The notes: generated by a model not told the origin, from the letters alone. A stretch of DNA of 64,000 nt from Acidimicrobiales bacterium (GCA_022452035.1 JAKURV010000005.1:19651-83650), one strand, 5' to 3'; counted from the stretch's first letter, positions 3,521 to 40,646 are shown. Numbers and translations: made by a program.

Positions 3521-4402
3521 ATGATGGCACGGCACGTTCCCGCACCCCACCTCCGATGGCCGTACCATCGGGTCGTGTCCGACGGTCCGGCCTCCCATCC
3601 CGACGTCCTGCTGGTCGACGACCCGCGCCCCGGTGTACGACGGCTGACCCTGAACCGGCCCGAGAAGCGCAACGCCCTGAACAACGCCCTTCGGGGAGCT
3701 CTGTTCGCCGCGCTCCAGGAGGCCGACCGCGACAACGCCGTCCACGTGACCATCCTCCGGGGAGCCGGACCGTGCTTCTCCTCTGGGTACGACCTGGGCT
3801 CAGACCTCAGCGCCGACCGACCCTCCTACACGCCGGGGGGTGACGGAGGCTGGGCCCGTCACGTCACCGACGGATGGCTGTCGCTGTGGGACTTGGCCAA
3901 GCCGGTAATTGCCCAGGTCCACGGCTACGCCATGGCCGGGGGCTCCGAGCTGGCCGCGGCCTGCGACCTCGTCTACTTGGCCAACGACGCCACCATCTCC
4001 CATCCCGTGCTCCGAGTAGCCGGAACACCTGACTTCGCCATCCACCCGTGGCTGGTCGGCCTACGCAACTCCCTGGAGATGGTCCTTACCGGCGATCCGG
4101 TAGACGCCGCCGAAGCGGTCCGCGTCGGTTACGCCAACCGTGCGTTTCCTGCTACCGAGCTGGATGAAGCGGTGCTGGCTGTAGCCGAGCGCATGGCCTC
4201 CATCCCCCACGAACTCCTACAGCTCAACAAGCGCTGGGTATACCGGGCGATGGACGCCATGGGTGCCCGAACGGCCATCCGGTCGGCCCCCGACCTGGGT
4301 GCCCTGGGCCCTCACGTCCCGTCGATCCAGGCGAACCTGGACGGGCTCCGGAGCCGGATACGCGACGCCGCCCGCTCACCGGACGACGACCCGGCAACCT
4401 GA
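3521..4402 (+). CDS. enoyl-CoA hydratase/isomerase family protein
   Basis: LTLNRPEKRNALN ... ILRGAGPCFSSGYDL ... VHGYAMAGGSELAAACD, the crotonase signature. Confidence 0.85.
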   Translation: MMARHVPAPHLRWPYHRVVSDGPASHPDVLLVDDPRPGVRRLTLNRPEKRNALNNALRGALFAALQEADRDNAVHVTILRGAGPCFSSGYDLGSDLSADRPSYTPGGDGGWARHVTDGWLSLWDLAKPVIAQVHGYAMAGGSELAAACDLVYLANDATISHPVLRVAGTPDFAIHPWLVGLRNSLEMVLTGDPVDAAEAVRVGYANRAFPATELDEAVLAVAERMASIPHELLQLNKRWVYRAMDAMGARTAIRSAPDLGALGPHVPSIQANLDGLRSRIRDAARSPDDDPAT

Positions 4403-4415
4403 CGGTCCGACCCAA

Positions 4416-5339
4416 TCAGGCGCCGCTTGGGACCCGCCTGGTCCGACTGGCCATCCGGTTCTCGAAGGTCTCGGCCTGGGCAATCAGGGCCCCCGGAATG
4501 GCCAGGATCTTCTCTTGCAGTTCCTCGCCCCGGGGGTCAAGGCCCTCGATGGACCCCACCTTCCAGTGGCGGAGCAGCGGTTGGACCACCTGTTCGGCAT
4601 GGATCCGTAGGTTGTAGATCCCGGCCCGGGCAATGGCCACGGCCCGTCGGCTGAAGTTCGGAATCACGGTCCCGGGCATGTTGAAGTCGGACAGGACCCG
4701 GTGGAGCGCCCCCAGCACGAAGGTGGGCGCCTGGCGCAGCATGGCCGTGGTCACTCCCCGGTAGAACATGAAGTGGTGGTTCTCGTCGGCGGCCACTCGG
4801 GTCATGACCTCGTGGGCCACCGGACAGTCGGCCTTCACCCCAGTGTTGCGGTGGCTGATACGGGTGGCCAGTTCCTGGGCCGACGTGTAGGCGAAGACCT
4901 CCACAGGGCACGGGGAGTCGTAACGCCAACCGCGGGTCACCGTGGCCAACCGCTCGTCCTCCAGTTGGGCAGGATCGCAGTTCCGGGTGGCCAGCAGGTA
5001 GTTACGGATGGCAATGGAGTGCTGGCCCTCCTCAGCCGTCCAGAGGCGGGACCATTCGGCCATCGGCGAGTCCTCGGGGAAGCTGCCAGCGATCTTGGCG
5101 TGGTAGTAGGGGAGGTTGTCCTCGGTCAGCAGGTTCAACTGCAGAGCGGTACGGACCTCCGGGGACAACGTGGCCTGGGACTCCTCCCACGGTTCGTCGC
5201 GGAAACTCCGGCCCAGTTCCCAAGGAACAACGTCGTGGGCATACCAATGCTGTCGGCGCTCCCGGTGCTCGGCCATGAGCCGGGAGATCTCCGGCTCGAC
5301 GGACGAGACCAACTCGAACGATTCGGTGGTGGCGGTCAC
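4416..5339 (-). CDS. desA: acyl-ACP desaturase (soluble di-iron, DesA-like)
   Basis: Di-iron ligand motifs TAEEGQH and ADENHH. Overall similarity to mycobacterial DesA1/DesA2-type proteins is from memory. Confidence 0.8.
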   Translation of the reverse strand: MTATTESFELVSSVEPEISRLMAEHRERRQHWYAHDVVPWELGRSFRDEPWEESQATLSPEVRTALQLNLLTEDNLPYYHAKIAGSFPEDSPMAEWSRLWTAEEGQHSIAIRNYLLATRNCDPAQLEDERLATVTRGWRYDSPCPVEVFAYTSAQELATRISHRNTGVKADCPVAHEVMTRVAADENHHFMFYRGVTTAMLRQAPTFVLGALHRVLSDFNMPGTVIPNFSRRAVAIARAGIYNLRIHAEQVVQPLLRHWKVGSIEGLDPRGEELQEKILAIPGALIAQAETFENRMASRTRRVPSGA

Positions 5340-5454: not shown

Positions 5455-8259
5455 TCAGTCGGTGACAGCGGGCTCGAGGTCGTCGTAGGTCTTGTTTCGA
5501 CGGAACTCGGTGATGATCTTCTTCGACGTCGTGGCCAGCATCACTCCGGCGAACGCGGTGAGAAAAGAGCCGGCGCCACTGACGGTCTTGAGGTCCGACA
5601 CCCGGGCCAGGCTGGCGATCCACACGATGCCGATCAGCGCTAGGCCACCTCCCGCGCCGGCAACCATGACACTCCAGCGCCATCTTCGGTTCTCGTCCAG
5701 GCCCAGCAAACCCGATGCCGGCACGGTGAGCGCCGCGCCGATGATGGACATCGTGATGGCCAGGCGGCCAAGCCCGCCACCGTCCTCCGAAAGCCCGTCG
5801 GTGACCACCAGAGCATTCATTCGGTACTTGTTGCGCAGAGAGGCGGCCTTTCCACTGTTTGATGCTGCCATGGCCGGATTCTCGTTCGTCTCGTCCCGAA
5901 GTCGAATCAGTTCCGCTTTGACCTCTTCGGGAAGCTCGGTCGCTCGACGTTCGTCGAAGGTCCAACCGGAAATCGAACCGATCAGGACCAGGGCAACGGC
6001 GAGGGCGCCCGCACCCATCCGACCCCAGCTGATGATTCGGTCCAAAGGTCGGAAGGCTGAGTAGGGCGCCGTCTGCAGGGCCAGGACCGCGCCGGCCAGC
6101 ATCACGATGCTGGCCACGATGGCCAGCATCACGCCCGGGCCGTGGTTGTAGGTCTCAACGTCGACGAAGGGGGAGGCCACCTGGTAGGTGAGGGCGGCGA
6201 CCAGCATGCAGCTCGAGGTGATGACCATGGTGTCTGCTGCGAACCAGCGGGAGCCTGACCGTAGGACGACCACGACCATCACGCCGATGGTGACGGTGGT
6301 CAGCAACTGCATGTCCAGGAACACCGCCGAATCGCCGGAGCCGATACTCCCGATGACCAGCCATCGGAGGGCGACGCCACTTGCCAGCGCTCCCAGGACG
6401 GTGACCCGCTGCTCGGAACCGGTTCCGTCAAGTACCCGATAGACGGCTCCGGCCAACGCGAGGGCCACCAGGTCCTTGACGTCGAGCACGGTCGAGAGCG
6501 GTGCGACGGCCATGCCCACGATGGCAACCACCGCAGCAGCCACCAAGTTGTTCCAGGTCATCCGATCGGCATCGAACAGGCTCGTACTGTTCAGGACGGC
6601 CAGCACGATCGCTCCGAGGGCGAGGACGATCACGGCGAGGACCTCTCCGGCCATACCGGTCGGGCTTTCGAAGATGTGCCCGAGCAGGCCCGCCGTGACG
6701 GCCCAAGTCCCGACCATCTGCCAGGACACCGGAACCGCCACCTTCGCTAGGCCGAGAACGAGGCCGAGGATCGCCGGAATCGCGAAGGTCTCGACGACCA
6801 CCGACCAGAAGGCCTGGGCCTCATAGCCCTGGAGGTTGGAAAGCATCGTGTACCCGTCGAACTCGCCCAGGATCGGGTACATGAAGATGGCGGTGAACGC
6901 GCCGAGCGCCAGGGATACCAGGCCGGCAGGACCTCGGGCCCGTCCGATCCCGCCCGTCCAGAAGATGCAGGAGACGGCGGCGAAGACGGAGAAGAAGCCC
7001 AGAGCCAGAACAACAAGGCCAGCCCACGAGCCACCGGATGCCTGGTAGCCGTTGAACGACTCGCCGATGAGGTCTACGTCTGCTTTACGGGAATGGCTGC
7101 TAAGGAGGCCAGCATCGTTGCCCCATGTCATCTTGGTGGAGAGGACCGCGACGAACCCGGCGATGCCGACGACGGCCATGCCGAGGCGCTCACGTCCCGA
7201 GGCCACTACCTCGTGCTCGACGTGGACGGCCTTTGATGCCTTCTGGTCTTCGGTCTCGGCTGCCTCGACCTTCTTGAGGAGTTCTTCAGGGTCCCGGCGC
7301 TGGCTCATGGCCTCCCGGATCCGGGATAACAGGTTCTGTCCACCCTCCTCTTCGGGCTGGGAGAGGCGGTCTAGTACGACGGCCACTGCCCACAAGGCGA
7401 GACCGGATGAGATGCCGAGGCCGATGTCGAGGTTCTGGACGGCCCGGAAGACCAGGAGTCCGAGGCCCCCGGCGCCCATGATGGCGGCGATGCCGACCAT
7501 GGCGATGGCCAGCATGAGGGTCTGGTTGAGACCGGCCATGATCGAGGGCTTGGCCAGCGGCAACTGGACGTCGGTCAGGACACGTAACTCGGTGGATCCG
7601 TACGCCCTGCTGGCCTCCACGACGTCCTCGGGAACGTGTCTGATGCCCAGGTTGACCATACGCACCAGCGGTGGCAGGGCGTAGATCATGGTCACCATGG
7701 TCGCTGGGACGACTCCGATGCTGAAGAAGAACACGAACGGCACCATGTAGACGAACGTGTGGACAGTCTGCATGGCGTCCAGGATCGGTCTGGTCACGTT
7801 CCACGCCGAGTCCACCCGGGCGCAAAAAACCCCGAGTGGGAGGCCGACGAGCGCGCACAACCCGACGGCCACGAGAACCATCCCGATGGTCCGCATGGTC
7901 TCCACCCAGTACATCGATCCGAGCAGGCCGCACATCATCAGGCCGAGCCCGGCCATAATGCCGATCTTCGGCGTCCGCACCAGCGAGCCGAGGATTACCG
8001 TGAAGAGCACCACCTGGTACCAGGGAAGCTGTAGCAGGAAGTCGTTGACGACATTCGAGAGCAGGAAGTCGAACGGCCACTTGACGGTATCGAGGAACCA
8101 CTGGGCGTTGGCGTCCAACCAGTCGACCATCTGGTCGAACCAGTACCCCACCGGCAACTGGAACTGGTCAAGGACCTTGGTATCGGAGAGGCCCACGCCC
8201 TCGCTTCGTCCGGTCCATTCGCCGGTCTCGCCGCCAATGACCCAGGTGGTCCATCTCAC
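5455..8259 (-). CDS. proW: glycine betaine/proline betaine-type ABC transporter permease (ProW/OpuAB-like core) fused to a ~575-aa polytopic C-terminal extension
   Basis: Residues ~60-300 form a ProW-like TMD with an EAA loop (VEASRAYGSTELRVLTDVQLPLAKPSI). A charged linker follows (QPEEEGG...EDQKASKAVHVEHE), then a long run of hydrophobic segments to residue 934. The start overlaps the proV stop by 4 nt. Confidence 0.8.
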   Translation of the reverse strand: MRWTTWVIGGETGEWTGRSEGVGLSDTKVLDQFQLPVGYWFDQMVDWLDANAQWFLDTVKWPFDFLLSNVVNDFLLQLPWYQVVLFTVILGSLVRTPKIGIMAGLGLMMCGLLGSMYWVETMRTIGMVLVAVGLCALVGLPLGVFCARVDSAWNVTRPILDAMQTVHTFVYMVPFVFFFSIGVVPATMVTMIYALPPLVRMVNLGIRHVPEDVVEASRAYGSTELRVLTDVQLPLAKPSIMAGLNQTLMLAIAMVGIAAIMGAGGLGLLVFRAVQNLDIGLGISSGLALWAVAVVLDRLSQPEEEGGQNLLSRIREAMSQRRDPEELLKKVEAAETEDQKASKAVHVEHEVVASGRERLGMAVVGIAGFVAVLSTKMTWGNDAGLLSSHSRKADVDLIGESFNGYQASGGSWAGLVVLALGFFSVFAAVSCIFWTGGIGRARGPAGLVSLALGAFTAIFMYPILGEFDGYTMLSNLQGYEAQAFWSVVVETFAIPAILGLVLGLAKVAVPVSWQMVGTWAVTAGLLGHIFESPTGMAGEVLAVIVLALGAIVLAVLNSTSLFDADRMTWNNLVAAAVVAIVGMAVAPLSTVLDVKDLVALALAGAVYRVLDGTGSEQRVTVLGALASGVALRWLVIGSIGSGDSAVFLDMQLLTTVTIGVMVVVVLRSGSRWFAADTMVITSSCMLVAALTYQVASPFVDVETYNHGPGVMLAIVASIVMLAGAVLALQTAPYSAFRPLDRIISWGRMGAGALAVALVLIGSISGWTFDERRATELPEEVKAELIRLRDETNENPAMAASNSGKAASLRNKYRMNALVVTDGLSEDGGGLGRLAITMSIIGAALTVPASGLLGLDENRRWRWSVMVAGAGGGLALIGIVWIASLARVSDLKTVSGAGSFLTAFAGVMLATTSKKIITEFRRNKTYDDLEPAVTD

Positions 8260-9696: not shown

Positions 9697-10320
9697 GTGG
9701 AAGACCGGCGATTCCTCGACACCTCTTACGACCTGGAGACCGGCCGTCAGACGCTGGACCACTACGAGGAGTGGGCCGAAACCTACGACCAGGAGGTCGG
9801 CGTCGAGAACGCCTACGCCCAACCCACCCGGTGCGCAAAAGCCCTGACCTCCGTAGTGGAACCCGGCGGACGGATCCTGGACGTGGGCTGCGGCACCGGA
9901 CTCTCCGGGCGTGCCCTCGCCGAGGCCGGATTCACCAACCTCGACGGCTGCGACTTCTCACCCCCCATGCTGGAACGGGCCGCAGCGACCGGGGTCTACG
10001 GCCGGCTCTTCGAATCCGACCTGAACGAGGGGCTCGACGTCGCCGACGACACCTACGATCACGCAGCGGCCGTCGGCGTGTTCTCGTTCGGGCACATCCG
10101 ACCCTCCGCCCTCCGTGACGTCCTGCGCGTCGTCCGACCGGGCGGTGCCGTAGTCGTCGGCTTGAACGACCACTTCTGGGACGAGGGCCGTTTCCCCGCC
10201 GAACTGGACGCCATCGAGGCCGACGGTTCGGCCACCGTGGCCTTCCGGGAGCACGGCGACCACCTGCCAGGTGCCGGCATCGAGGGTTGGGTCGTGGTCC
10301 TGATCAAAGAGCAGGGCTGA
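9697..10320 (+). CDS. class I SAM-dependent methyltransferase
   Basis: Motif I ILDVGCGTGLSG. GTG at 9697 is preceded by GGGGAGA. The ORF could also start at TTG 9676. Confidence 0.7.
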   Translation: MEDRRFLDTSYDLETGRQTLDHYEEWAETYDQEVGVENAYAQPTRCAKALTSVVEPGGRILDVGCGTGLSGRALAEAGFTNLDGCDFSPPMLERAAATGVYGRLFESDLNEGLDVADDTYDHAAAVGVFSFGHIRPSALRDVLRVVRPGGAVVVGLNDHFWDEGRFPAELDAIEADGSATVAFREHGDHLPGAGIEGWVVVLIKEQG

Positions 10321-10321
10321 T

Positions 10322-10344
10322 CGCCCGGATACCGACGCCGGGCG
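10322..10344. terminator. GC-rich hairpin between convergent genes (CGCCCGG-N9-CCGGGCG)
   Basis: A 7-bp perfect stem read in the 39-nt gap between the methyltransferase stop and the FDH Fe-S subunit stop. No U-tract. Confidence 0.35.
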
Positions 10345-10359
10345 GATCCGTCCCGGAGG

Positions 10360-11220
10360 TTAGGACTGAGCGTGTTGCCAGCCGAACCGTCCCTTGATGC
10401 ACAGGTGGCCGTGAGTCACCGAGTGGTCGGCCGGTGACGTCACCTTCACAATCCGCTCATCCTGGACGTGCAGTTCCAGGTTGCAGCCCACCCCGCAGAA
10501 CGAACACACCGTGGTGGTGACCTCCTGGTCTTCCTCGTTCCACGTGCCGTCCAGGCGCATGTCGTGCTCGGTCTTGAAAGCCAGCGCCCCCGTTGGACAG
10601 ACCCCGATGCAGTTCCCGCAGTAGACGCAGGCCGAATCGGGAAGGGTCACGTCGTGCTCGGTGGAGATGTGGGCCCCGAAACCCCGACCGGCTGTGGCGA
10701 TGGCGTAGGTGTGCTGGGCGTCGTCGCCACAGGCCTCAACGCACTTGTAGCAGAGGATGCACCGTTCGTAGTCCCGAACGTAGAGGTCGTCTTGGACCTT
10801 CACCGGCTGGGCCACCGTCGCGATCTCGGACCGTTCTCCCATCCGCTCCGGCCGGGCCCCATAGTGCTCCATCCAGGCGTGGACCTCGGGGTCAGCCCGG
10901 TCCATCTCGACCGACGAGGCCAGCAGCTCGTAGACCATCCGCCGACTGGTGTGTACCCGCTCGGAGTCAGTGGACACCACCATCCCGTCTTCCACGGGCC
11001 GGGAACAGGACGGAACCAGAACCCGGGACCCCTCGACCTCGACTACGCAGACCCGGCAAACGTTGACCGGTGTCAAGTTCTCGGCCCAGCACAGCGTTGG
11101 TGTGTCGATGCCCTGGCGGCGACAGGCGTCCAGGATGGTGGACCCCTCCGGAACACGAACTGTCGCCCCGTCGATGGTGGCCTCGACCATGGTGGTCACA
11201 GAAACCGCCGTCTCGTTCAT
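10360..11220 (-). CDS. formate dehydrogenase alpha subunit, N-terminal Fe-S module only (2Fe-2S + two 4Fe-4S + MopB-type 4Fe-4S)
   Basis: NuoG-like CRRQGIDTPTLC...CRVC, then CILCYKCVEAC and CVYCGNCIGVCP, then CSFCGVGCNLE...HLCIKGRFGW. The protein ends where the molybdopterin domain normally continues. Confidence 0.85.
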   Translation of the reverse strand: MNETAVSVTTMVEATIDGATVRVPEGSTILDACRRQGIDTPTLCWAENLTPVNVCRVCVVEVEGSRVLVPSCSRPVEDGMVVSTDSERVHTSRRMVYELLASSVEMDRADPEVHAWMEHYGARPERMGERSEIATVAQPVKVQDDLYVRDYERCILCYKCVEACGDDAQHTYAIATAGRGFGAHISTEHDVTLPDSACVYCGNCIGVCPTGALAFKTEHDMRLDGTWNEEDQEVTTTVCSFCGVGCNLELHVQDERIVKVTSPADHSVTHGHLCIKGRFGWQHAQS

Positions 11221-13040
11221 CGAGATCCTCCGCCGCCGATGTCGACCAGCAGGCCGAGGTCCAGAGCGCTGAGCACAGCACCTGAGGCCGTCTGACCCAA
11301 ACCGCAGATCGAGGCGTCCTTCATGACGGCCGCTAGGTCGTCCAGCAGGTCCCGTTCGTCATCCACCGTGGACCCCCGTCCCAGCCGGACCAGCACCTCC
11401 TCCTGGCGCACCGTCCCCACCCGGCAGGGAACGCACTGGCCACACGACTCGTCACGGAAGAATTCGGCGATGCGCCGTACGGTGTCGACCAGGTCGTCAG
11501 TCTCATCGAACACCATGATCACGCCTGAGCCCAGCGACACGCCTGCGTCCCGGGTGGCCTCCAACGTCAGCGGCAGGTCCAGCGAGTCCGGTCCCACGAA
11601 GCTACCGGCGGCCCCACCCAGCATGACGGTCCGCAGGCTCCGCCCCTCTGGCAGGCCTCCGGCCAGGTCGATCAGGTCCCGCAGGGTGGCCCCAAACTCC
11701 ACCTCGTAGGTGCCGGGGCGGACTACCCGTCCGCTGAGGCAGAACAACTTTGTTCCTGGTGACCGCTCCGTACCCTCGGCGGCGTAGGCCGCTCCGCCGT
11801 CCAAAACAATGGGCAGCACGTTGACCAGTGTTTCCACGTTGTTGATGGCCGTGGGCTCACCGAACAGGCCGTGCGTGGTGGGAAACGGCGGCTTGTTCCG
11901 AGGCTCGCCCCGGAACCCCTCAAGCGAATTAAACAGCGCCGTCTCCTCGCCACAGATGTAGGCACCGGCCCCGCTGCGCAGCGAGATGTCGAAGCGACGT
12001 CCCGAGCCGGAGACGTCGTCGCCCAGGAGCCCTGCAGCCCGGGCCTCGGTGATGGCATGGCCCAGACGGTCGGTGGCCACCGGGTACTCACCCCGGATGT
12101 ACAACCAGCCCTGCTCGGCCCCGACGGCCAGGCCGGCCACCGTCATAGCCTCGATGAGGGAGAACGGGTCACCCTCCATGACAACCCGGTCCTTAAAGGT
12201 TCCGGGCTCAGACTCATCGGCATTGCACACCAGGTGGCGGGGACGCCCCTCCTGGTCGGCCACGCCGCGCCACTTGATGCCGGTCGGGAAGGCAGCACCA
12301 CCCCGACCGGACAACCCGGCCGTGGTCACCTCGGCAATCACCTGGTCCGATCCCATGGTCAACGAGGCCTCCAGGGCCCGGTAGCCGCCGTGGGCCCGGT
12401 AGTCCTCGAGGCTGGTCGGATCGACGACACCGACACGGGCCAGGAGGCGTAGGCCGGGATCCCCAGCCTGGGGGAGGGTGACCGACGGCGTGGAGGCGCC
12501 CGATCCGATGGCTGCCGCGACCTGTGCGACACCAACCGGTCCGCCATCCACCGAAGCGACGGTCACGTCTTCGTTCCCGGTCCGCTGGACCATCACCGCT
12601 GGTCCCCGCTCGCACTGACCTAGGCACGGGCTTGCCTTGACGTGGTGCCCGTCGGCGACCAGGTCGTCGATCAGCTCCAACGCTCCGACGATCCGGCAGG
12701 CCACGTCGTCGCACACGTGCACAGTGTCGACGGCAGCCGGCGGCTCGTGGGTGAACAGGTGGTAGAAGGTGGCCACGCCGTATCCCTCAGCAGGCGGCAC
12801 CTCCAGTTGCGCGCAGGCGTAGTCCAAACCCCCCGGGCTAATCCAACCGACCGACCGCTGGAGAGCGTGGAGGGCCGGAAGCAATAGGTGGCGACGCTCC
12901 CGAGTGCGTTCGTGGCCTCCATAAACCAACCGTTCGGACTCCCAGAGGACCACCGGACCAAGGCTGGCAATCGCCGCGTCGACCCCTGCCCTCTCGGCGT
13001 CAGTCGCCTCCTCTGTCGCCCCAAAGTGGAGGTCAGGCAC
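11217..13040 (-). CDS. NAD-reducing formate dehydrogenase diaphorase subunit (NuoE-like 2Fe-2S domain fused to NuoF-like FMN/NADH/4Fe-4S domain)
   Basis: N-terminal VCDDVACRIVG...SPCLGQCERGPAVMV (NuoE type). Then GAGAYICGEETALFNSLEG (FMN site) and ESCGQCVPCRVG (N3 cluster). Confidence 0.85.
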   Translation of the reverse strand: MPDLHFGATEEATDAERAGVDAAIASLGPVVLWESERLVYGGHERTRERRHLLLPALHALQRSVGWISPGGLDYACAQLEVPPAEGYGVATFYHLFTHEPPAAVDTVHVCDDVACRIVGALELIDDLVADGHHVKASPCLGQCERGPAVMVQRTGNEDVTVASVDGGPVGVAQVAAAIGSGASTPSVTLPQAGDPGLRLLARVGVVDPTSLEDYRAHGGYRALEASLTMGSDQVIAEVTTAGLSGRGGAAFPTGIKWRGVADQEGRPRHLVCNADESEPGTFKDRVVMEGDPFSLIEAMTVAGLAVGAEQGWLYIRGEYPVATDRLGHAITEARAAGLLGDDVSGSGRRFDISLRSGAGAYICGEETALFNSLEGFRGEPRNKPPFPTTHGLFGEPTAINNVETLVNVLPIVLDGGAAYAAEGTERSPGTKLFCLSGRVVRPGTYEVEFGATLRDLIDLAGGLPEGRSLRTVMLGGAAGSFVGPDSLDLPLTLEATRDAGVSLGSGVIMVFDETDDLVDTVRRIAEFFRDESCGQCVPCRVGTVRQEEVLVRLGRGSTVDDERDLLDDLAAVMKDASICGLGQTASGAVLSALDLGLLVDIGGGGSR

Positions 13041-14937
13041 CGGTGGCTACCCCGACGAGCTTGTCGACCCGCACGGCCGCCGCCTTGAACTCGGCCGTGC
13101 CCGACTTCGGGTCAACCGCGTCGCTGGTGATCTGGTTGATGTCGGTCGTCTCCGGGAAGTGGAAGGTGGTGTGGCACAGGCCTACGGCAAGGTCCCGGTC
13201 GATGCCGATGGTCATCTCGATGGCGCCCCGGCGGGACGACACGTTCACCCGCTCCCCCTCGACCACCCCCAGATCGGCGGCGTCGGCCGGCGAGATCTCG
13301 AGCGCCTCCCCCGTGCGAATGGGCGAGGAGTACTTGTCGGTCTGCACGCCCGTGTTGTACGAGTCCAGGGCGCGCACGGTGGTTAGACGCAACGGGAACT
13401 CATCGGAAAGCTCGTCCAGCGGACGGCGATCCTCGACACACGAAAACGGCGCCAGTCGTCCACCGGCCGGCCGCTCCCAGAGGCGGCCGTGTAGGAATGG
13501 ACTCCCGGGATGGCCTTCGGTCGGGCACGGCCACTGGATGCCACCCTCCGCCTCGAGGCGCTCCCAGGACATGCCGGCGTGCATGGGTGAAACGGTCCGG
13601 AGTTCCTCCCAAAGTTCCTCGGCCGTGGGGTTCCCCCAGCCTCCGTCACCCATCTGAGCCGCCAGGTCGTTGATGATCCCGATCTCCTGGCGAGCTTCAC
13701 CGGGTGGCGGTATGGCGGCCCGCATCCGCTGGACACGACGCTCGCTGTTGGTGACCGTACCGTCCGACTCCGCCCATCCCAGGGCCGCCGGCAGGACAAC
13801 GTCGGCCATCTGGGCCGTACGCGTCAGGAACACGTCCTGCACGACCAGCACATCGAGTCGCTCAAGCATGGCCCTGGCGTGCTTGACGTCGGCCTCCGAG
13901 TCGGCCGGGTTCTCGCCGATGCAGTAGACGGCCTTGAGCTCATCTCGCTCCATGGCCTCGAACATCTCGGTGAGGTTCCAGCCGTTGGTAGCGGGAATCT
14001 CACAGTCCCAGGCCCCTTCGAACTTGGCCCGCACCTCGTCATCTTCCACGTCCTGGAAGCCGGTGAGCTTGTTGGGCAGCGCACCCATGTCACCACCGCC
14101 CTGCACGTTGTTCTGCCCGCGAAGGGGCACCAGACCTGAACCCCTCCGGCCCACGTGCCCGGTGAGCAGGGCAAGGTTGCAGAGGGCCTGAACGTTGTCC
14201 ACCCCGGTGTGGTGCTCGGTGATTCCCAGGGTCCAACAGATCTGGGCCGTCGGGGCCGAGGCGTATCCGTGGGCCAGGTCCCGGATGGCCTCGGTAGGCA
14301 CGCCGGTAACCTCCGCAGTCCGCTTCAGGGTCCACGACTCCACGAAGGCCACGAACTCCTCGTAGCCGGTGGTGGCGTGCCGGATGAACTCGTCGTCGGT
14401 GAGGCCAGCGTGGATGATCTCGCGTGCCACCCCGTGGGCCAGGGCGATGTCGGTCCCGACGTCGAGGCCTAGCCAGGAGTCGGTGAACTTGGCCGTACCG
14501 GTCCGCCGGGGGTCGACGGTCCACGACCGGGCACCGTTGTCGATGCCCTTTAGGACGTGGTGGAAGAAAATGGGGTGCGCGTTGCGCGCGTTGGTCCCCC
14601 ACATGACGATGGCGTCGGTCGTCTCGATCTCCTCGTATGACGAGGTACCTCCGCCTGCTCCGAAGACCGTCGCCAGACCGACGACGCTAGGAGCGTGTCA
14701 AGTTCGATTGCAGCTGTCGATGTTGTTCGAGCCGATGACCCGTCGGGCGAACCGCTGGGCGGCGTAGTTCACCTCGTTGGTGGTCTTCGAGCAGCTGAAC
14801 ATGCCGAAGGCCGAGGGACCGTGGGTGTCGACCACGGAGCCGAACCCGGAGGCGGCCCGCTCGAGGGCCTCCTCCCAGGTCGCCTCGCGCAGCACCCCGT
14901 CCTCGCGGACCATCGGTGTAGTCAGACGCTGGCTCAT
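13033..14937 (-). CDS. fdhA: formate dehydrogenase alpha subunit, molybdopterin catalytic module; selenocysteine encoded by in-frame TGA at 14698-14700
   Basis: Two same-frame track ORFs (14698..14937 and 13033..14604) join through one TGA. The read-through is NNIDSCNRT-U-HAPSVVGLATVFGAGGGTSS, collinear with the FdhF Sec site (CARV-U-HGPSVAGL). ATG 14937 is preceded by GGGGGA. Confidence 0.8.
14657..14694 (-). promoter_or_regulatory. candidate bacterial SECIS element
   Basis: The mRNA just 3' of the UGA can form a lower helix GCUCC/GGAGC and an upper helix CGUCGUC/GGCGACG (one G.U), capped by a GGUCU loop. The upper helix starts 12 nt after the UGA. Confidence 0.6.
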
Positions 14938-14980
14938 GTGTCCCCCATCATTGGAGTCCGGCCGGAATCCCTCAGTCGGC

Positions 14981-15015
14981 CTCGACGACGGCCCTGGTCG
15001 GGAACCGTCGTCGAG
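14981..15015 (-). terminator. strong hairpin (11-bp perfect stem CTCGACGACGG-N13-CCGTCGTCGAG) between the enoyl-CoA hydratase stop and the FDH start
   Basis: Read directly in the 127-nt gap. No U-tract. It could be a terminator, attenuator or mRNA-processing site. Confidence 0.4.
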
Positions 15016-15064
15016 ATCGAAACCTAGCGCGGTTTACCGGGGCTCAGGCTTTCCCTCCAGTGGA

Positions 15065-15853
15065 TCAGGAGCCCTGCCAGTGGGGGTCCCGCTTCTCGAC
15101 GAAAGCTTGCAGTCCCTCCTCCGCATCCTCCGAAGCCAGCATGCGTTCGTAGGCCTCCAGATCGCCCGACCGGAGGTGGGCAAACGCCTCTTCCAGGGAG
15201 AGGTGGCGGGTGGCCCGGTCGATGGCCAACACCGCCTCCACGGCCAGCGGGGCGGAAGCAGAAATCCGACCGGCTAACTCGAGAGCCGCCGAGCGGAGGT
15301 CGGCCACCGGCACCACCCGATTGACGAGGCCCCACCGTTCGGCCTCCCGGGCATCCAGGCGTCGCCCGCCTATGAGCACCTCGGTGGCCACCGCTGGCGG
15401 CAAAATACGGGGCAGCCGGACCGCTCCCGTGTCGGGGATGATTCCCAAGCCGGCTTCGGGAAGAAAAAACTCGGCGTGCTCGGCGGCCACCACGAACTCG
15501 GCGGCCAGGGCGATCTCGAAGCCGCCACCTACGGCTAGGCCGTTCACTGCACACACCACCGGTTTGTTCCTTCGGGGTAACTCGCCAAAGCCGCCGAAGC
15601 CGCCTTCGCCGTAGTCGGCCTCGAACTCCTCGCCGTCCGCCGCCGCGCCGAGGTCCCAACCAGCCGAGAAGAACCGGTCACCGGCCCCCGTGAACACGGC
15701 GACCCTCAGCGACGGGTCATCCCTGAACCCGGCGAACACTTGTCCCAGCTCCCGGCTCGTGGCGGCGTCGATGGCGTTGGCCTTCGGACGGTCTAGGACC
15801 ACCTCCAGTACCCCGCCGTTTACCGTGGTCCGGACCGCCGCCCCGTCGCTCAT
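15065..15853 (-). CDS. enoyl-CoA hydratase (CaiD/BcoD-like; candidate crotonobetainyl-CoA hydratase)
   Basis: VVLDRPKANAID...VFTGAGDRFFSAGWDL...VNGLAVGGGFEIALA. The specific role is inferred from context with carnitine genes. Confidence 0.75.
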   Translation of the reverse strand: MSDGAAVRTTVNGGVLEVVLDRPKANAIDAATSRELGQVFAGFRDDPSLRVAVFTGAGDRFFSAGWDLGAAADGEEFEADYGEGGFGGFGELPRRNKPVVCAVNGLAVGGGFEIALAAEFVVAAEHAEFFLPEAGLGIIPDTGAVRLPRILPPAVATEVLIGGRRLDAREAERWGLVNRVVPVADLRSAALELAGRISASAPLAVEAVLAIDRATRHLSLEEAFAHLRSGDLEAYERMLASEDAEEGLQAFVEKRDPHWQGS

Positions 15854-25989: not shown

Positions 25990-26964
25990 TCAGCCCCTGC
26001 GACGACGAATCTCGGCGGTGATGGCCGGGATGACCTGGTGCAGGTCGGCGATCACAGCGTGGCCGGCTCGGGTGACCATGTTGGCCTCCGGGTCGATATT
26101 GATGGCGAGGATGTTCTTGGCCGCCATAGCGCCAACCCAGTGCTGGATGGCGCCCGAGATGCCGCTGGCGATGTAGATCTCTGGGGCGATCCGCGTGCCG
26201 GTCTGTCCAACCTGGTCGCTGTGGGGACGCCAGCCGTTGTTGGTCACGGCCCGAGAACAGCCCACCACCCCACCCAGCTCGGAGGCCAGTTCCTCCAGCG
26301 GCGCGAACGCCTCAGCCGAACCGACGCCCCGACCGCCACCCACCACTACAGGAGAGGTGGCGAGGGTAATGCCCTGGGTCAGGACGACCCGGTCTGCCAC
26401 CACGGTGGCCGACAGCGACGGGTCCAAGTCGGGCAGGAAGGGTGCCACCACTCCGGCGGCTGGTGCATCGGCCGGAGCGGCCTCCACAGCGTGATGGGCC
26501 ACGGAGACCAGCTTCACGTCTGCAGACAGCGTGGTGTCCTCGAGCAGAGAACCACCCCACTGGACTCGGGTCATGGACCAGTCACCGTCGGCGGGCTGGA
26601 CCGTCCGGCAATTGGCCACAAATGGCACCTCCAGGCGGGCCGCCACCTGGGCCAGGACCTCGTTGCCACGGTCTGTACCACAGGCCAGCACAGCCGTCGC
26701 CCCGGTGGCCCTCACCAGTTGGACCACCGTCTCACCCCAGGCCTCGGGGCCGAAGTCAGTGAGGAGGTCGTGGGAGGCCAAGTGGACGGTGGCCGCCCCG
26801 TGGATCGCCAGGTCGGTAGAGGCCACCTCGGCGCCCTCGCCGATTACCACGGCGGCCAGATCCAGTCCGGCCGCCGCAGCCAGCGGGCGCCCAAAGGCAA
26901 GGGCCTCCAGCGAGGCCTCGGCCAGGTGGCCCCGGTCGTGGTCGCAGACAACGAGCAGGCTCAC
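25990..26964 (-). CDS. etfA: electron transfer flavoprotein alpha subunit
   Basis: C-terminal IYIASGISGAIQHWVGAMAAKNILAINIDPEA. Confidence 0.9.
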   Translation of the reverse strand: MSLLVVCDHDRGHLAEASLEALAFGRPLAAAAGLDLAAVVIGEGAEVASTDLAIHGAATVHLASHDLLTDFGPEAWGETVVQLVRATGATAVLACGTDRGNEVLAQVAARLEVPFVANCRTVQPADGDWSMTRVQWGGSLLEDTTLSADVKLVSVAHHAVEAAPADAPAAGVVAPFLPDLDPSLSATVVADRVVLTQGITLATSPVVVGGGRGVGSAEAFAPLEELASELGGVVGCSRAVTNNGWRPHSDQVGQTGTRIAPEIYIASGISGAIQHWVGAMAAKNILAINIDPEANMVTRAGHAVIADLHQVIPAITAEIRRRRG

Positions 26965-27728
26965 GACAGCACCCCCAGCTCCTCCAACAGGTCCACGATC
27001 GCCGGGGCGGCCTCAGGACCGGTGCCCAAGATCACTGTCTCGCTGACCGTCTCCACTGGTCGGTGCAGACGCACCCGTTCCTGTCCACCGGCGCCGGCCG
27101 AGCGCTCGTCCACCACCACCTCGGCCTTCTTGGAAGCCAGTCGGCCCTTCATGGTCGGATACCGCGGGAGGTTGATCCCTTCCTTCACCCCGAGGACGGC
27201 GGGCAGGGGCACGTTGTAGACCTCGAAGCCGCCATCGATCTGTCGACGGGCAGACGCCACGCCGTCGGCCACGTCGATGCCCTTGATCCCGTTGACTACC
27301 GGTCTACCCAGGGCATAGGCCACCCGGACCCCGACCTGGAACCCGCCGGCGTCAGCCGACTCATTGCCGAACAGGACGAGGTCAAACGGACCGACGACCG
27401 CCTCGACGTCGGCGACCGCTCCGGCCAGCGCCGCGGCAGTGCGCTGTGGGTCCCAATCCACCTCGGTGATCGGAACCAAGATCAAGTGGTGGGCCCCCAC
27501 GCTGGCCGCGTAGCGAAGCTGCTCCTCAGCCTCGACCGGGCCGAGGGTCAAGACGGTGACCTCGCCACCGTTGGCCTCGGTCAACCGGACGGCCTCTTCC
27601 ACCGCGCACTCCTCGTGGGGGCTGGTAGTGAAGCCCAGGTGGGACGAATCGACGGCCTGACCGTCGGCGGTGACATTGATGCGAGCACCGGGAGCCGGCA
27701 CGCGCTTCACGCAGACAAGGATCCTCAT
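26961..27728 (-). CDS. etfB: electron transfer flavoprotein beta subunit
   Basis: MRILVCVKRVP..., 255 aa, 4-nt overlap with etfA. Confidence 0.9.
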   Translation of the reverse strand: MRILVCVKRVPAPGARINVTADGQAVDSSHLGFTTSPHEECAVEEAVRLTEANGGEVTVLTLGPVEAEEQLRYAASVGAHHLILVPITEVDWDPQRTAAALAGAVADVEAVVGPFDLVLFGNESADAGGFQVGVRVAYALGRPVVNGIKGIDVADGVASARRQIDGGFEVYNVPLPAVLGVKEGINLPRYPTMKGRLASKKAEVVVDERSAGAGGQERVRLHRPVETVSETVILGTGPEAAPAIVDLLEELGVLS

Positions 27729-27770: not shown

Positions 27771-30290
27771 TCAGCCCTTCATCCGGGAGTCGGTGGGATC
27801 AAACACGGCACCCGTGGTGGCGACCTCCACCGGATAAAGCTCGTTCATGTACATCACCTGCAAGTCGGTTCCGGAAACAGCCAGTTCCCGGGGCAGGTAG
27901 GCCATCAGGAGGTGTCGGCCCACCGACGGCCCGTAGCCGGCCGAGGTGACCCGGCTGACCCGACCGTGGCTGTCGGTGATGCGATCACCGTCCGGGGTCA
28001 GGATTGGCTCGTTCCCACCCATCATGTGGCGATTCCGACCCAGGCCATCGGTCTGGTCCTCGACGGTCAGGGTGCACATCAGGACCTCGGGATCCCCAGC
28101 CTCCCGAGCAGCCAGGTAGGCCTCCTTGCCGATGAAGTCGGCAGCCTTGACCCTCGGTCGGGCCAGACCGGCCTCCACCGGGTTGTACTCGCTCTCCAGC
28201 TCGGCTCCCATCAGTCGGTAACCCTTCTCGAGCCGACCCGACGACCCGTAGACGCCACCGCCGGTCGGGCGGATGCCCAGGTCGGCACCGGCCTCCATCA
28301 GGGCGTCCCATAGGGCCGGCCCGTCGTCCCAGGACGCGTAGATCTCCCAGCCGGTGTCGCCAACGTAGGAGATACGGAACAACTGGCACGGTAGACCAGC
28401 CACCTCAGCATCAACGATCGACCCGTAGGGCGAGTCGGTCTGGCTCAGGTTCTGGTCAGTGAGCTGAGACAGCACGGCCGGGGCGTTGGGGCCCCAAAGG
28501 CCGAGCGTGGTGACATCCTCAGTGATGTTGCGGAACGACACCGAGCCATCGGTCGGCATGTGGCGGCGGGTCCAGAACTCGTCCCGTCCACCATCGAACA
28601 CGCCGGTGACGATCCGCACCCGGTCCTCACCGAGTCGCATCATGGTCAGGTCGGAGTGGAATCCACCATCGGCGGTCAGCCACGGGGTGTAGATGGAGCG
28701 GCCGACCGGCACGTCCACCTTGTTGACGGCCAGGCGGTCGGCGTACTCGACGGCTCCCGGACCTTCCAACTCGTAGATCTGGAAGGCGCTGAGGTCCACC
28801 ACACCGCAGTTCTCGCGCAGGTTGAGGTGCTCACCGATGGTGATGGGGCTCCACCAGCGGTTATCCCATTCCACATCCCTCTCGGACAGGTCGTAGCGCT
28901 CTACCAGGTCGGCGTTGGCTCCGAACCACTGCGGGCGCTCCCAGGTCCGAGCCTGGAAGAACATGGCGTCCAAGTCCTCCTGACGGGAGAAGTAGGGGCC
29001 AACTCGCAGGTTCCGGCGGCCTTCCCACTGCTCGTCCGGGTGGACAATGCCGTACGTCTTGTTGAAGTGCTCCTCGGCCCGGGCCCAGATGTGCTCCTCG
29101 GTCCGCTCCTGGTCGTAGAAGCGCGCGATGTCGGCACCGTGGACGTCGATGACACGGGGATAGCCAAAGGTCATCCACTCGGCGACCACCTGAGCCATGC
29201 CTGGTCCCTCCTTGACCCACACCGCGGCGGCTGACCAAAGGTTGCGGACCTCGGGGGTCTCTCCGAGGCACGGCATGGTGTCCGGGGTCATGGCCAATAG
29301 GCCGTTGATGGCGTATTTGATTTCGGCGTCACCGAGCATTTCCATCAGCTCGATGGCCGTCTCCATCTGAGGGTCGAAGTCGTCCGGCGTGAAGGGCATC
29401 TCAGTGGGCGACAGCGCCGCCTCCTCGTTGGATGGGATCTCGTCCGGGTGGTGGAAGATGGGCCGGTGGCCGTACGACCCGATCTCCATGGAGCCGGCCG
29501 ATTGCCGCTCATAGCAAAGGGTGTCCATGTCTCGGACGATCGGGTAGCCGATCTCGTTATTGGTCTCGGCCAGGATGTCGACGGGGCCGACGTCGGCCAT
29601 CTGGTGCACGGTGGGCACCAACGGGATGGCGGCACCGGCCATGTTGGCGATGCGGTTGGACCAGACGCCGCAGGCGATGACCACGTGGTCGGCCTGGATG
29701 GTGCCCTTGTCGGTGACTACTGAACGGACGGTGGTCACGCCTCCCTCGCCCTCGCTAGTTTCGATGTCGAGCACCTCGGTGTTGGCGAACACCTGGCAGC
29801 CGACCGTTTCGACGGCCTCCCTGCGCATGGTGGTGCCAGCCTCCAGCGAGTCGACCACCGACACCGTGGGACTGTAGAAGCCACCGAGGATGACCTCCTC
29901 GTTGACGAATGGCACTAGCTCTACAACCTCGGCCGGGGTGAGCAGGTGGGCCTCAATACCCCACGCCCTGGCTGACGTCATGCGGCGGGCCAGCTCGTGC
30001 ATCCGGTCGGCGGTTCGGGCCACTTCGATACCTCCCGAATCGACCGAGAGTTGCATGTCCCGGTACTGGTTGGCGCTCTGCTCGCCAAGCAGTGCCATCT
30101 CCTTGTTGTGATCGACCGGGAAGATGAAGTTGGAGGCGTGGCCGGTCGAGCCGCCGGGATTGGGCAGCGGGCCCTTCTCCAGTAGGACGAGGTCGGTCCA
30201 GCCCAAGCGGGCCAGGTGGCCGACGAGACAACTGCCGACGATGCCGGCACCGATCACGACGACGTTGGCGCGAGTCGGGAGTTCGCTCAT
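27771..30290 (-). CDS. dimethylglycine/sarcosine dehydrogenase family protein (FAD DAO domain + GcvT folate-binding aminomethyltransferase domain)
   Basis: 839 aa. N-terminal VVVIGAGIVGSCLVGHLARLGW. The C-terminal half has the GcvT-type fold pattern. AGGAGA RBS. Immediately upstream of etfBA. Confidence 0.85.
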   Translation of the reverse strand: MSELPTRANVVVIGAGIVGSCLVGHLARLGWTDLVLLEKGPLPNPGGSTGHASNFIFPVDHNKEMALLGEQSANQYRDMQLSVDSGGIEVARTADRMHELARRMTSARAWGIEAHLLTPAEVVELVPFVNEEVILGGFYSPTVSVVDSLEAGTTMRREAVETVGCQVFANTEVLDIETSEGEGGVTTVRSVVTDKGTIQADHVVIACGVWSNRIANMAGAAIPLVPTVHQMADVGPVDILAETNNEIGYPIVRDMDTLCYERQSAGSMEIGSYGHRPIFHHPDEIPSNEEAALSPTEMPFTPDDFDPQMETAIELMEMLGDAEIKYAINGLLAMTPDTMPCLGETPEVRNLWSAAAVWVKEGPGMAQVVAEWMTFGYPRVIDVHGADIARFYDQERTEEHIWARAEEHFNKTYGIVHPDEQWEGRRNLRVGPYFSRQEDLDAMFFQARTWERPQWFGANADLVERYDLSERDVEWDNRWWSPITIGEHLNLRENCGVVDLSAFQIYELEGPGAVEYADRLAVNKVDVPVGRSIYTPWLTADGGFHSDLTMMRLGEDRVRIVTGVFDGGRDEFWTRRHMPTDGSVSFRNITEDVTTLGLWGPNAPAVLSQLTDQNLSQTDSPYGSIVDAEVAGLPCQLFRISYVGDTGWEIYASWDDGPALWDALMEAGADLGIRPTGGGVYGSSGRLEKGYRLMGAELESEYNPVEAGLARPRVKAADFIGKEAYLAAREAGDPEVLMCTLTVEDQTDGLGRNRHMMGGNEPILTPDGDRITDSHGRVSRVTSAGYGPSVGRHLLMAYLPRELAVSGTDLQVMYMNELYPVEVATTGAVFDPTDSRMKG

Positions 30291-38948: not shown

Positions 38949-40646
38949 ATGTCGTTCCCCTCCGACCTAGAAATTGCCCGAGGCGCCGAACTGCGCCCCC
39001 TCACCGACATCGCGTCGGAAGCCGGAATCCCAACCGACTGCCTAGAGCCCTACGGCGAGGGCGCGGCCAAGATCAAGTTGGACGCCATCGGACGGATGGC
39101 CGACCGCCCGAAGGCCCGGTACGTGGTCGTCTCAGCCATCACCCCCACACCCCTGGGCGAGGGCAAGACCACGACGACCGTCGGCCTCGGCCAAGGCTTC
39201 AGTCACATCGGGAAAAAGGCCACCATCGCCATCCGCCAGCCCTCGATGGGCCCGACCTTTGGGATCAAGGGTGGGGCGGCCGGCGGCGGCTACAGCCAGG
39301 TCGTACCCATGGAGCTGTTCAACCTCCACCTAACCGGAGACATGCACGCCGTCACGGCGGCCCACAACATGTGCTCGGCCATGCTCGACGCCCACCTGTT
39401 CCACGGCAACGAGCTGGGACTGGACCTCCACAACATCACGTGGCGGCGGGTCATGGACATCAACGAGCGGGCGCTGCGCAACATCGTCGTCGGCCTGGGC
39501 GGCCGGCTAGATGGCGTGCCCCGCGAAACCGGCTTTGACATCACCGCCGCCTCCGAGGTCATGGCGGCCCTCGCCCTGTGCACCTCGCTGGCCGACCTGC
39601 GCCAACGAATGGGCCGAATCGTCGTCGGCTACGACAAGGCGGGCACTCCGGTCACCGCCGAGGACCTCGGCGTAGCCGGCTCGATGACGGTCATCCTCAA
39701 GGAAGCCATCAAGCCCAACCTGATGCAGACCCTGGAGGGCACTCCCGCCCTGGTCCACTGCGGCCCGTTCGGCAACATCGCCACCGGCAACTCGTCGATC
39801 GTGGCCGACCAGATCGGCATCCACACCGGTGACTTCCTGCTCACCGAGGCGGGTTTCGGCGCCGACATGGGCGCCGAGCGGTTCTTCAACATCAAGTGCC
39901 GCTATTCGGGCATCGCCCCCGACGCCGCTGTTCTGGTAGCCACCGTCCGCGGCCTGAAAGCCCACTCCGGCAACCACAAGATCGTGGCCGGTAAGCCGCT
40001 TCCCGAGGCCCTCCTGGCCGAAAATCCCGACGAGGTGCACCAGGGAGGCGACAACCTCCGCAAGCAGCTGGAGAACATGCAGGTCCATGGGGTGTCTCCG
40101 GTAGTGGCCATCAACGTGTTCCCTGGCGACCACGACGTCGACATCAACGCCATCAAGGAGATCGCCGACGAGTTCAACGCCCGGTCGGCGATCACCACCC
40201 ACTTCGCCGACGGCGGGTCGGGAGCCGCCGAGCTGGCCGAGGCGGTCGCCGAGGCGGCCGACGAGCCCAGCGACTTCCAGGTCCTGTATCCGGACGAGAT
40301 GTCGCTCCGGGACAAGATCCGCACCGTGGCCGAGAAGGTCTACGGTGCCGACGGCGTAGATTTCTCGCCGCAGGCCAACAAGCAGATCGACACGTACGAG
40401 GCCAACGGCTTCGGCAACCTACCGGTGTGCATCGCCAAGACGCACTTATCGATCAGTTCGAACGCCGCCCTCAAGGGCGCCCCAACTGGGTGGACGCTCC
40501 CCGTCCGCGAAGTCCGGGCCTCAGTGGGCGCCGGCTTCGTGTACCCGATCTGCGGTGACATGCGTACGATGCCCGGGCTGGGCGCCCGGCCGGGCGCCAT
40601 GGGTATTGACATCGACGAGAACGGTGAGATTGTCGGCCTGAGTTGA
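38949..40646 (+). CDS. fhs: formate--tetrahydrofolate ligase
   Basis: ITPTPLGEGKTTTTVGL, GGAAGGGYSQVVPME, PALVHCGPFGNIA. Confidence 0.95.
   Translation: MSFPSDLEIARGAELRPLTDIASEAGIPTDCLEPYGEGAAKIKLDAIGRMADRPKARYVVVSAITPTPLGEGKTTTTVGLGQGFSHIGKKATIAIRQPSMGPTFGIKGGAAGGGYSQVVPMELFNLHLTGDMHAVTAAHNMCSAMLDAHLFHGNELGLDLHNITWRRVMDINERALRNIVVGLGGRLDGVPRETGFDITAASEVMAALALCTSLADLRQRMGRIVVGYDKAGTPVTAEDLGVAGSMTVILKEAIKPNLMQTLEGTPALVHCGPFGNIATGNSSIVADQIGIHTGDFLLTEAGFGADMGAERFFNIKCRYSGIAPDAAVLVATVRGLKAHSGNHKIVAGKPLPEALLAENPDEVHQGGDNLRKQLENMQVHGVSPVVAINVFPGDHDVDINAIKEIADEFNARSAITTHFADGGSGAAELAEAVAEAADEPSDFQVLYPDEMSLRDKIRTVAEKVYGADGVDFSPQANKQIDTYEANGFGNLPVCIAKTHLSISSNAALKGAPTGWTLPVREVRASVGAGFVYPICGDMRTMPGLGARPGAMGIDIDENGEIVGLS

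Follow-up and report, generated by a model that had tools for sequence, protein, structure and literature searches.

Among the formate dehydrogenases (FDHs) described so far, the closest to the system dealt with here was reported by Rohwerder et al. (2020), who listed for Actinomycetospora chiangmaiensis DSM 45062 an enzyme designated FDH3, made up of FdhA3, FdhB3 and FdhC3 (Table 1 and Suppl. Fig. S4; PMC7176365). The 640-aa FdhA3 is homologous to the metallopterin part only and carries selenocysteine (Sec) at residue 80, the 614-aa FdhB3 is a NuoE/NuoF-like fusion, and the 316-aa FdhC3 was described as 'separate but homologous' to the N-terminal Fe-S domain (PMC7176365). FDH3 was predicted to be cytoplasmic and NAD+-reducing; all three proteins were found by proteomics and were up 2-3 fold on 2-hydroxyisobutyrate, and formate removal by A. 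chiangmaiensis was selenium-dependent (PMC7176365). In the FDH of Rhodobacter capsulatus (RcFDH), the direct electron path comprises the bis-molybdopterin guanine dinucleotide (bis-MGD), the clusters A1, A2, A3, A5 ([2Fe-2S]) and B6, and flavin mononucleotide (FMN), and the His-ligated cluster A4 is off-path, located at the dimer interface (PMC7171172). The present analysis concerns an operon found in a 64,000-nt stretch of DNA from a marine Acidimicrobiales bacterium (GCA_022452035.1 JAKURV010000005.1:19651-83650), a metagenome-assembled genome (MAG) of 65 contigs that is 96% complete; this whole stretch is called the window, and all coordinates are counted along it. The reading of open reading frames (ORFs) in the window revealed three genes, here named CAT, EF and FES, which lie on the minus strand, head to tail and overlapping. 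The best explanation as a whole is that their products very probably form one soluble Sec-dependent NAD+-linked FDH of three polypeptides. The features of the operon, followed by the cluster ligands of FES, are these:

14937..13033, minus strand: CAT, fdhA-type catalytic subunit, 634 aa when TGA is read as Sec
14946..14941, minus strand: Shine-Dalgarno-like GGGGGA, with 3 nt (cac) between its end and the CAT ATG, known from the sequence only
14700..14698, minus strand: in-frame TGA, codon 80 of CAT, at the catalytic Sec/Cys position, context CNRT-U-HAPS
14657..14694, minus strand: selenocysteine insertion sequence (SECIS) hairpin, loop GGUCU, upper stem GUCGUC/GGCGAC starting 12 nt after the UGA
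13040..11217, minus strand: EF, NuoE-NuoF fusion, 607 aa, GTG start
11226..11231, minus strand: Shine-Dalgarno GGAGGA, 5 nt 5' of the FES ATG, likewise recognised by sequence alone
11220..10360, minus strand: FES, Fe-S subunit, 286 aa, ATG start
FES Cys44/55/58/72: [2Fe-2S] ligands
FES Cys154-164 and 198-208: two ferredoxin-type [4Fe-4S] clusters
FES Cys239/242/246/274: ligands of the MopB Fe4S4 cluster (FS0), plus Lys276 after the last FS0 cysteine

CAT shares 8 nt (13033-13040) with EF, and EF shares 4 nt (ATGA, 11217-11220) with FES, whose ATG overlaps the EF stop. An earlier note on this DNA had claimed overlaps of these two lengths, together with a FES protein ending in ...HLCIKGRFGWQHAQS* and a CAT protein starting with MSQRLTTPMVRE behind its own GGGGGA, and each of them was found, at the gene junctions, at 10360..11220 on the minus strand, and at 14937 with GGGGGA at 14946..14941, respectively. 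The central claim of that note, namely that an FDH alpha subunit had been cut directly behind the MopB Fe4S4 domain, is upheld by domain mapping, by alignment to the solved FdsA/FdhH structures and by conserved synteny; domain mapping and synteny also agree with the proposed permutation of the two halves around a NuoE-NuoF fusion, and the cluster nearest the Mo/W centre does belong to a separate polypeptide, since Molybdop_Fe4S4 is present on FES and absent from CAT. The catalytic module proposed at 13033..14937 stood as to its span and domains, but not as an uninterrupted reading frame, the in-frame TGA at codon 80 having been overlooked. Moreover, the rearrangement is not peculiar to this genome, but belongs to what appears to be an ancient, monophyletic, multi-phylum enzyme type.

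The Pfam domains of CAT are Molybdopterin and Molydop_binding only, without an Fe4S4 domain, and those of FES are Fer2_4, the two-cluster ferredoxin domain Fer4_Nqo3 and, at the C-terminal end (233-285), Molybdop_Fe4S4. It was observed that CAT 3-625 aligns to R. capsulatus FdsA (RcFdsA) 307-932 (phmmer against PDB sequences) and CAT 2-627 to Escherichia coli FdhH 59-688 (phmmer), and that FES 12-284 aligns to RcFdsA 25-303 (E 3e-41). FES and CAT together tile RcFdsA 25-932 with a gap of 3 residues, and therefore the cut is clean, directly after the FS0 domain. The fusion of NuoG-like Fe-S domains to MopB in one alpha chain, which is a trait of FdsABG and Fdh1AB, was not found in this operon, where EF stands between the separate genes. 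In CAT, the residues U80, H81 and R273, equivalent to Sec140, His141 and Arg333 of FdhH, were invariant in 36 family sequences, and the single-chain AlphaFold (AF2) model, with a predicted local distance difference test (pLDDT) value of 83, presented a TMq of 0.90 to FdhH, 0.91 to the Rhodobacter FDH alpha and 0.89 to the alpha of MeFDH1. In FES, the 16 cluster Cys (16/16) and K276 were invariant across 44 sequences. For the His-ligated cluster A4 (PF10588), FES gave no Pfam match, the stretch between its residues 73 and 153 was free of Cys, and in the alignment FES was gapped opposite the RcFdsA motif HPLDCLTCAANGDC. A FES variant lacking the [2Fe-2S] domain was also considered, from matches covering 118-285 only in ~20 class-level and ~25 phylum-level genomes, and was rejected because the two cases examined, L088 (337 aa) and L089, proved to be full-length FES with a linker insertion that breaks the alignment.

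Under translation table 11, the reading frame at 13033..14937 is closed by the codon-80 TGA. A TGA occupied the equivalent codon in all the related loci covering the site (73/73), and the six pairs of the SECIS upper stem were kept in 69-70 of 70 unique homologous sequences, in which the GGUCU loop was invariant. The stem also presented covariation, with a swap from C-G to G-C in 7 sequences and U-A/U-G and U-G/C-G changes in others. The same genome encodes tRNA-Sec, selA adjoining selB, and selD, besides FdhD, MoaA and a MobA-like gene. Because an in-frame TGA at the catalytic site and a conserved SECIS are combined with selA, selB, selD and tRNA-Sec in one genome, CAT is concluded to be a selenoprotein, whose required genes for cofactor maturation are at hand in this genome. 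The motif GAG-U-GCK of selD (C8:39537-40460, minus strand) also contains an in-frame TGA; SelD is therefore a selenoprotein too, and the genome has at least two (CAT and SelD). A Sec-containing FdhD, raised by an FdhD match flagged with one internal TGA, was rejected, since this TGA is a plain stop codon. In the public gene calls of four related loci (L001-L004), CAT is broken at the UGA, leaving fragments of 82-93 aa and 542-548 aa, and FES goes in databases under the names 'YjgC', 'HndD' and '2Fe-2S binding protein'.

The Pfam domains of EF are 2Fe-2S_thioredx, Complex1_51K, SLBB and NADH_4Fe-4S (the N3-type [4Fe-4S]), and NCBIfam agrees with them. The NuoF motifs for FMN, NADH and N3 could be read from the translation (GRGGAAFPTGIKW, CGEETALFNSLEG and ESCGQCVPCR), and EF residues 1-598 align in close relatives. 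The Pfam scan of EF found none of the additional ferredoxin domains that bifurcating HydB-type subunits have; the assembled domains point to a simple formate:NAD+ oxidoreductase. In such an enzyme, CAT would bind a Mo or W bis-pyranopterin cofactor, and formate would be oxidised at Sec80, His81 and Arg273. Since CAT is devoid of an Fe4S4 domain, the first acceptor would be the FS0 [4Fe-4S] in the C-terminal domain of FES, docked on CAT in trans, and the first hop, from the pterin to FS0, would cross a protein-protein interface. From there, the electrons would reach the N-terminal [2Fe-2S] of FES by way of its two ferredoxin-type [4Fe-4S] clusters; the N3-type [4Fe-4S] of EF and its FMN would come next, leading to the reduction of NAD+. 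In fact, FES and EF retain exactly the on-path centres of RcFDH plus an N1a-type cluster, and A4 has been dropped; as A4 is missing, a Rhodobacter-type dimer contact is unlikely in the split enzyme. Assembly into a complex, NAD+ as the acceptor, Mo or W as the metal, and the catalytic direction are proposed here by homology, A. chiangmaiensis being the sole source of experimental support (PMC7176365).

For the comparison among organisms, loci were drawn from metagenomes and species-representative genomes, and taxa are named as in the deposited MAGs. A FES query matched thousands of stand-alone proteins of ~287 aa. The gene order CAT-EF-FES, on one strand, was observed in every related locus with enough flank (84/84), among them many complete chromosomes (OZ/OY records) and a 3.17-Mb hifiasm contig (L004). 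These observations confirmed that the split layout is real and that the arrangement is far beyond chance. The earlier note had asked for a synteny comparison and for long-read confirmation of the order, and had named two findings that would tell against it: an assembly error concealing a fused gene, and a better partner for FES elsewhere, with a full-length FdsA nearby. The comparison gave an identical order in the related loci, and the long-read chromosomes among them keep the split. As for the second, no full-length FdsA was found in the window's own 96%-complete genome, whose other NuoE/F/G homologues are those of complex I, on contig 1.

According to record titles, the carriers of this layout include Acidimicrobiia, Actinomycetes, Acidobacteriota, Chloroflexota, Dormibacterota, Eremiobacterota, Spirochaetia and Verrucomicrobiia. 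When FES orthologues were counted at E <= 1e-70 in evenly drawn genomes, they were present in 70 of 301 genomes of the window's class (~23% of Acidimicrobiia), distributed among 44 of 136 genera, and in 44 of 401 genomes of its phylum (~11% of Actinomycetota). Near-alike FES sequences from five MAGs (L013, L016, L018, L019 and L024), with tip branches of ~0.06-0.19, grouped in one well-supported five-member clade, and the labels of these MAGs are Verrucomicrobiia, Dormiibacterota, Acidoferrum, Chloroflexi and a Micrarchaeaceae archaeon. Such similar FES under discordant labels suggests mis-binning or very recent transfer, and therefore caution is needed with the number of carrier phyla. In another locus, L090 (G271:C1), two extra partial FES copies were observed 3' of an intact CAT-EF-FES, at 10026-10115 and 11408-12016 of that locus, one of them covering residues 85-285 with 65% identity and an in-frame TAG; this amounts to a partial duplication of the Fe-S gene within that locus, or to a pseudogene of it.

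The origin of the split was addressed by a maximum-likelihood tree of the FES region, which included 46 split sequences and 24 unsplit alpha N-termini and NuoG; P0174 and P0179, 'split' representatives at 45-49%, were left out as frameshifted fragments. The split FES formed one clade with a support of 100/99 and a long stem, and all of them end after a conserved W/F-Q-F/Y-V-Q motif followed by a variable tail. As they fall in one clade at this support and share the cut after the same motif, the split FES is judged to have a single origin. Many relatives of intermediate length (344-378 aa) correspond to ordinary fused Sec-FDHs truncated at the UGA by gene callers and present the continuous junction KGRF.[WFY].FV.H.DRLT.P. 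The nearest unsplit relatives in the tree were the alpha of an uncultured Nitrospinota (904 aa) and its kin (P0215, P0274, P0338; L092-L095), whose operons are arranged as nuoE-nuoF-alpha or, in L093, as fhs-nuoEF (fusion, 583 aa)-alpha (900 aa). Both halves encoded in the window fit one of these unsplit alphas, L092_A, in which FES 16-285 corresponds to 7-269 and CAT 4-624 to 273-890.

Concerning the genomic setting, the operon neighbours a ProV/ProW-type betaine uptake system, as recognised by Pfam in the window ORFs, and a carnitine-type module comprising BKACE, a 3-hydroxyacyl-CoA dehydrogenase plus thioesterase, ACAD, an ADP-forming acyl-CoA synthetase and a crotonase. Other window ORFs encode the following:

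38949-40646, plus strand: formyltetrahydrofolate synthetase (FTHFS)
27771-30290, minus strand: DAO+GCV_T protein of the dimethylglycine/sarcosine dehydrogenase type
25990-27728, minus strand: electron transfer flavoprotein (ETF) alpha/beta
41665-43818, plus strand: Oxidored_FMN+Pyr_redox_2 protein of the trimethylamine/dimethylamine dehydrogenase type

An MTHFR-like protein is encoded further along the window as well, and fhs directly adjoins the operon in the related loci L001 and L088. We infer that the operon is embedded in an island of methyl-group-oxidising genes, which would supply the FDH with formate. In this island, formyltetrahydrofolate would be converted to formate, with ATP gained via FTHFS, and formate then to CO2 and NADH, as the last step of methyl-group oxidation. 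A scan of 10100-15200 for promoters and terminators gave no call. The 127-nt gap between the crotonase gene and CAT holds a GC-rich inverted repeat (cgacgacggt...gccgtcgtcg, 14981-15015, minus strand), which has no U-tract and was not called by the consensus terminator scan. On the same strand, a 934-aa ORF at 5455-8259 has a BPD_transp_1 (ProW-like) domain at 139-299 only, its long remainder being without a Pfam match.

Several alternatives to one three-polypeptide FDH must be weighed. That the layout is an assembly or binning artefact, in which the true gene would be a fused fdsA and the order would come from mis-joined contigs, could be argued from the 65-contig state of the source MAG, but its probability is practically nil, because the same order recurs in 84 independent loci, including the hifiasm contig and complete chromosomes, the FES tail motif is followed by a conserved stop, and the genes overlap each other, which leaves no free junction for a mis-join. 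It would be very surprising, too, if the locus joined two separate systems, with EF and FES as a stand-alone diaphorase/ferredoxin module and CAT as an FdhF-like enzyme with another acceptor. The best PDB sequence matches of CAT are indeed of the FdhF/FdhA type (7bkb_D, 7qv7_S) and not FdsA, and FES is also similar to HoxU and to HydA N-terminal domains; against this, CAT itself lacks any Fe-S cluster through which electrons could be passed on, the terminal MopB Fe4S4 domain of FES would be pointless without a MopB partner, the three genes remain linked across phyla, apart from complex I and one distant MopB, neither a hydrogenase-like partner nor another MopB partner is encoded in the genome, and the three A. 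chiangmaiensis proteins are co-induced (PMC7176365). Some observations do weigh against a single coupled FDH. No purified split-type enzyme, and no enzymology or structure of one, was found in the literature searched. The single-chain AlphaFold model of FES is poor (pLDDT 61.6) and is therefore uninformative on docking. CAT scored 641 bits against TIGR01591 (Fdh-alpha), below the cut-off of 666.25, and matched profile positions 51-672 only; this shortfall is to be expected, since the first 50 profile positions are missing from CAT, and positions 1-49 match FES 237-285 instead. Furthermore, gaps of 250-1500 nt separate CAT from EF in L011, L048, L059, L062 and L082 (~1.5 kb, 3531-5065); therefore, a tight translational coupling is not family-wide.

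If the three proteins do form one FDH, it might still work in vivo as a CO2 reductase, supplying formate to a reductive folate or Wood-Ljungdahl-type route. The unsplit related operon of L093, whose neighbours are CdhD, a pterin-binding protein and FTHFS in a Wood-Ljungdahl context, is in keeping with that direction, as is the reversibility of Mo/W FDHs (PMC7171172). The proposal nevertheless seems improbable for the window operon, which is placed among methyl-group-oxidising genes (DAO+GCV_T, ETF, Oxidored_FMN+Pyr_redox_2 and betaine uptake), with no genes for carbon monoxide dehydrogenase/acetyl-CoA synthase noticed among the window ORFs scanned; moreover, formate builds up in A. chiangmaiensis without selenium, which indicates net oxidation (PMC7176365). 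How the formate-oxidising, three-polypeptide enzyme arose is a question with two closer contenders. Tandem duplication followed by outer loss is a classic route to permutation. One ancient fission of an EF-then-alpha operon may have taken place in this way, the tandem duplication of EF-alpha and the subsequent loss of the outer pieces directly yielding alphaC-EF-alphaN, and this route is plausible. Alternatively, one half may have been moved by translocation or inversion, or FES and CAT may descend from different parent enzymes, which we consider only somewhat less than an even chance. The duplication intermediate was not found among the loci examined, a result that counts against duplication and in favour of these alternatives, as does the fact that CAT and FES differ in their best PDB match; on the other side, both halves align end to end with the single nearest unsplit alpha, L092_A, and this alpha follows EF, which is the order that a duplication requires. 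The data fit a translocation of one half equally well.

A further question is whether the split is functional or a neutral accident. According to the functional version, FS0 provided in trans would mark out a separate class of FDH, obligately dependent on Sec and occurring mainly in usually-aerobic taxa, in which CAT would be matured alone and docked afterwards. CAT would be translated first, and the insertion of the bis-pyranopterin guanine dinucleotide cofactor and the sulfuration by FdhD would take place via the face normally lying under FS0; the matured CAT would then dock on a pre-assembled FES-EF diaphorase, and, in lineages like that of the window, the overlapping cistrons together with a weak EF ribosome-binding site would make diaphorase synthesis dependent on successful Sec decoding at codon 80. 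We regard this as doubtful, and would give it a low probability. To our knowledge, in all structurally studied MopB enzymes with a proximal [4Fe-4S], the cluster and the pterin are on the same chain. In the split Sec-FDH, FS0 has been parted from the pterin, and many soil and marine lineages, a large share of them, have kept the two apart, which makes this enzyme a natural system for studying the maturation of a catalytic subunit and a first electron step across a protein interface. The affected taxa are abundant and largely uncultured, and the enzyme is systematically mis-annotated; as CAT is cut at the UGA and FES is misnamed, metabolic reconstructions probably undercount both formate oxidation and selenium dependence. 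In this genome, to judge from its context, the operon would complete a route from osmolyte methyl groups to CO2 and NADH.

Among known systems, FDH3 of A. chiangmaiensis resembles the window operon in the sizes of its proteins (640/614/316 vs 634/607/286 aa) and in U80, present in both, and its consecutive accessions WP_084681743/WP_018332443/WP_018332444 fit an alpha-beta-gamma order. It differs in belonging to Actinomycetes, the window coming from Acidimicrobiia, and orthology is presumed from the sizes, the U80 and the domains as published. The study describing FDH3 is silent on FS0 being on gamma, on the permutation, on its distribution and on the missing A4, and FDH3 is unpurified (PMC7176365). 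Apart from that paper, no description of the split type was found in the literature searched, and it is not mentioned in a review of metal FDHs published in Chem Rev in 2026, in the ForCE paper or in a peatland Acidobacteria preprint. The three-subunit layout has thus already been noted for FDH3 but is essentially unstudied, and the window operon is a further case of it.

Fdh1AB of Methylorubrum extorquens AM1 (MeFDH1/FoDH1; PDB 7e5z, 7vw6, 8j83) is likewise soluble and NAD-linked, with a beta subunit that is a NuoE-NuoF fusion, and its alpha matches both CAT (TMq 0.89; 397 bits) and FES (127 bits); however, this alpha is one chain of ~990 aa with fused Fe-S domains, and it has Cys instead of Sec and uses tungsten. 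FdsABG(D) of R. capsulatus and Cupriavidus necator (PDB 6tg9/6tga) shares the on-path chain of bis-MGD, A1, A2, A3, A5, B6 and FMN, but FdsA is fused, FdsG (NuoE) and FdsB (NuoF) are separate chains, Cys386 takes the place of Sec, and the enzyme has the extra His-ligated A4 at the dimer interface, an FdsD subunit and the gene order G-B-A. The unsplit alpha of the Nitrospinota type (L092-L095) is like the split type in being without PF10588 and in sharing, in one operon, a NuoEF fusion and an adjoining fhs, and unlike it in being one chain of 900-904 aa with no in-frame stop, presumably of the Cys type, in an EF-then-alpha order. A precedent for a MopB fold distributed over two polypeptides is formylmethanofuran dehydrogenase FwdB/FwdD (PDB 5t5i), which is besides a weak match of CAT. 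In that enzyme, it is the C-terminal domain IV (FwdD) that has been cut off, and FS0 stays with the catalytic chain, whereas in the window operon the N-terminal FS0 has been removed.

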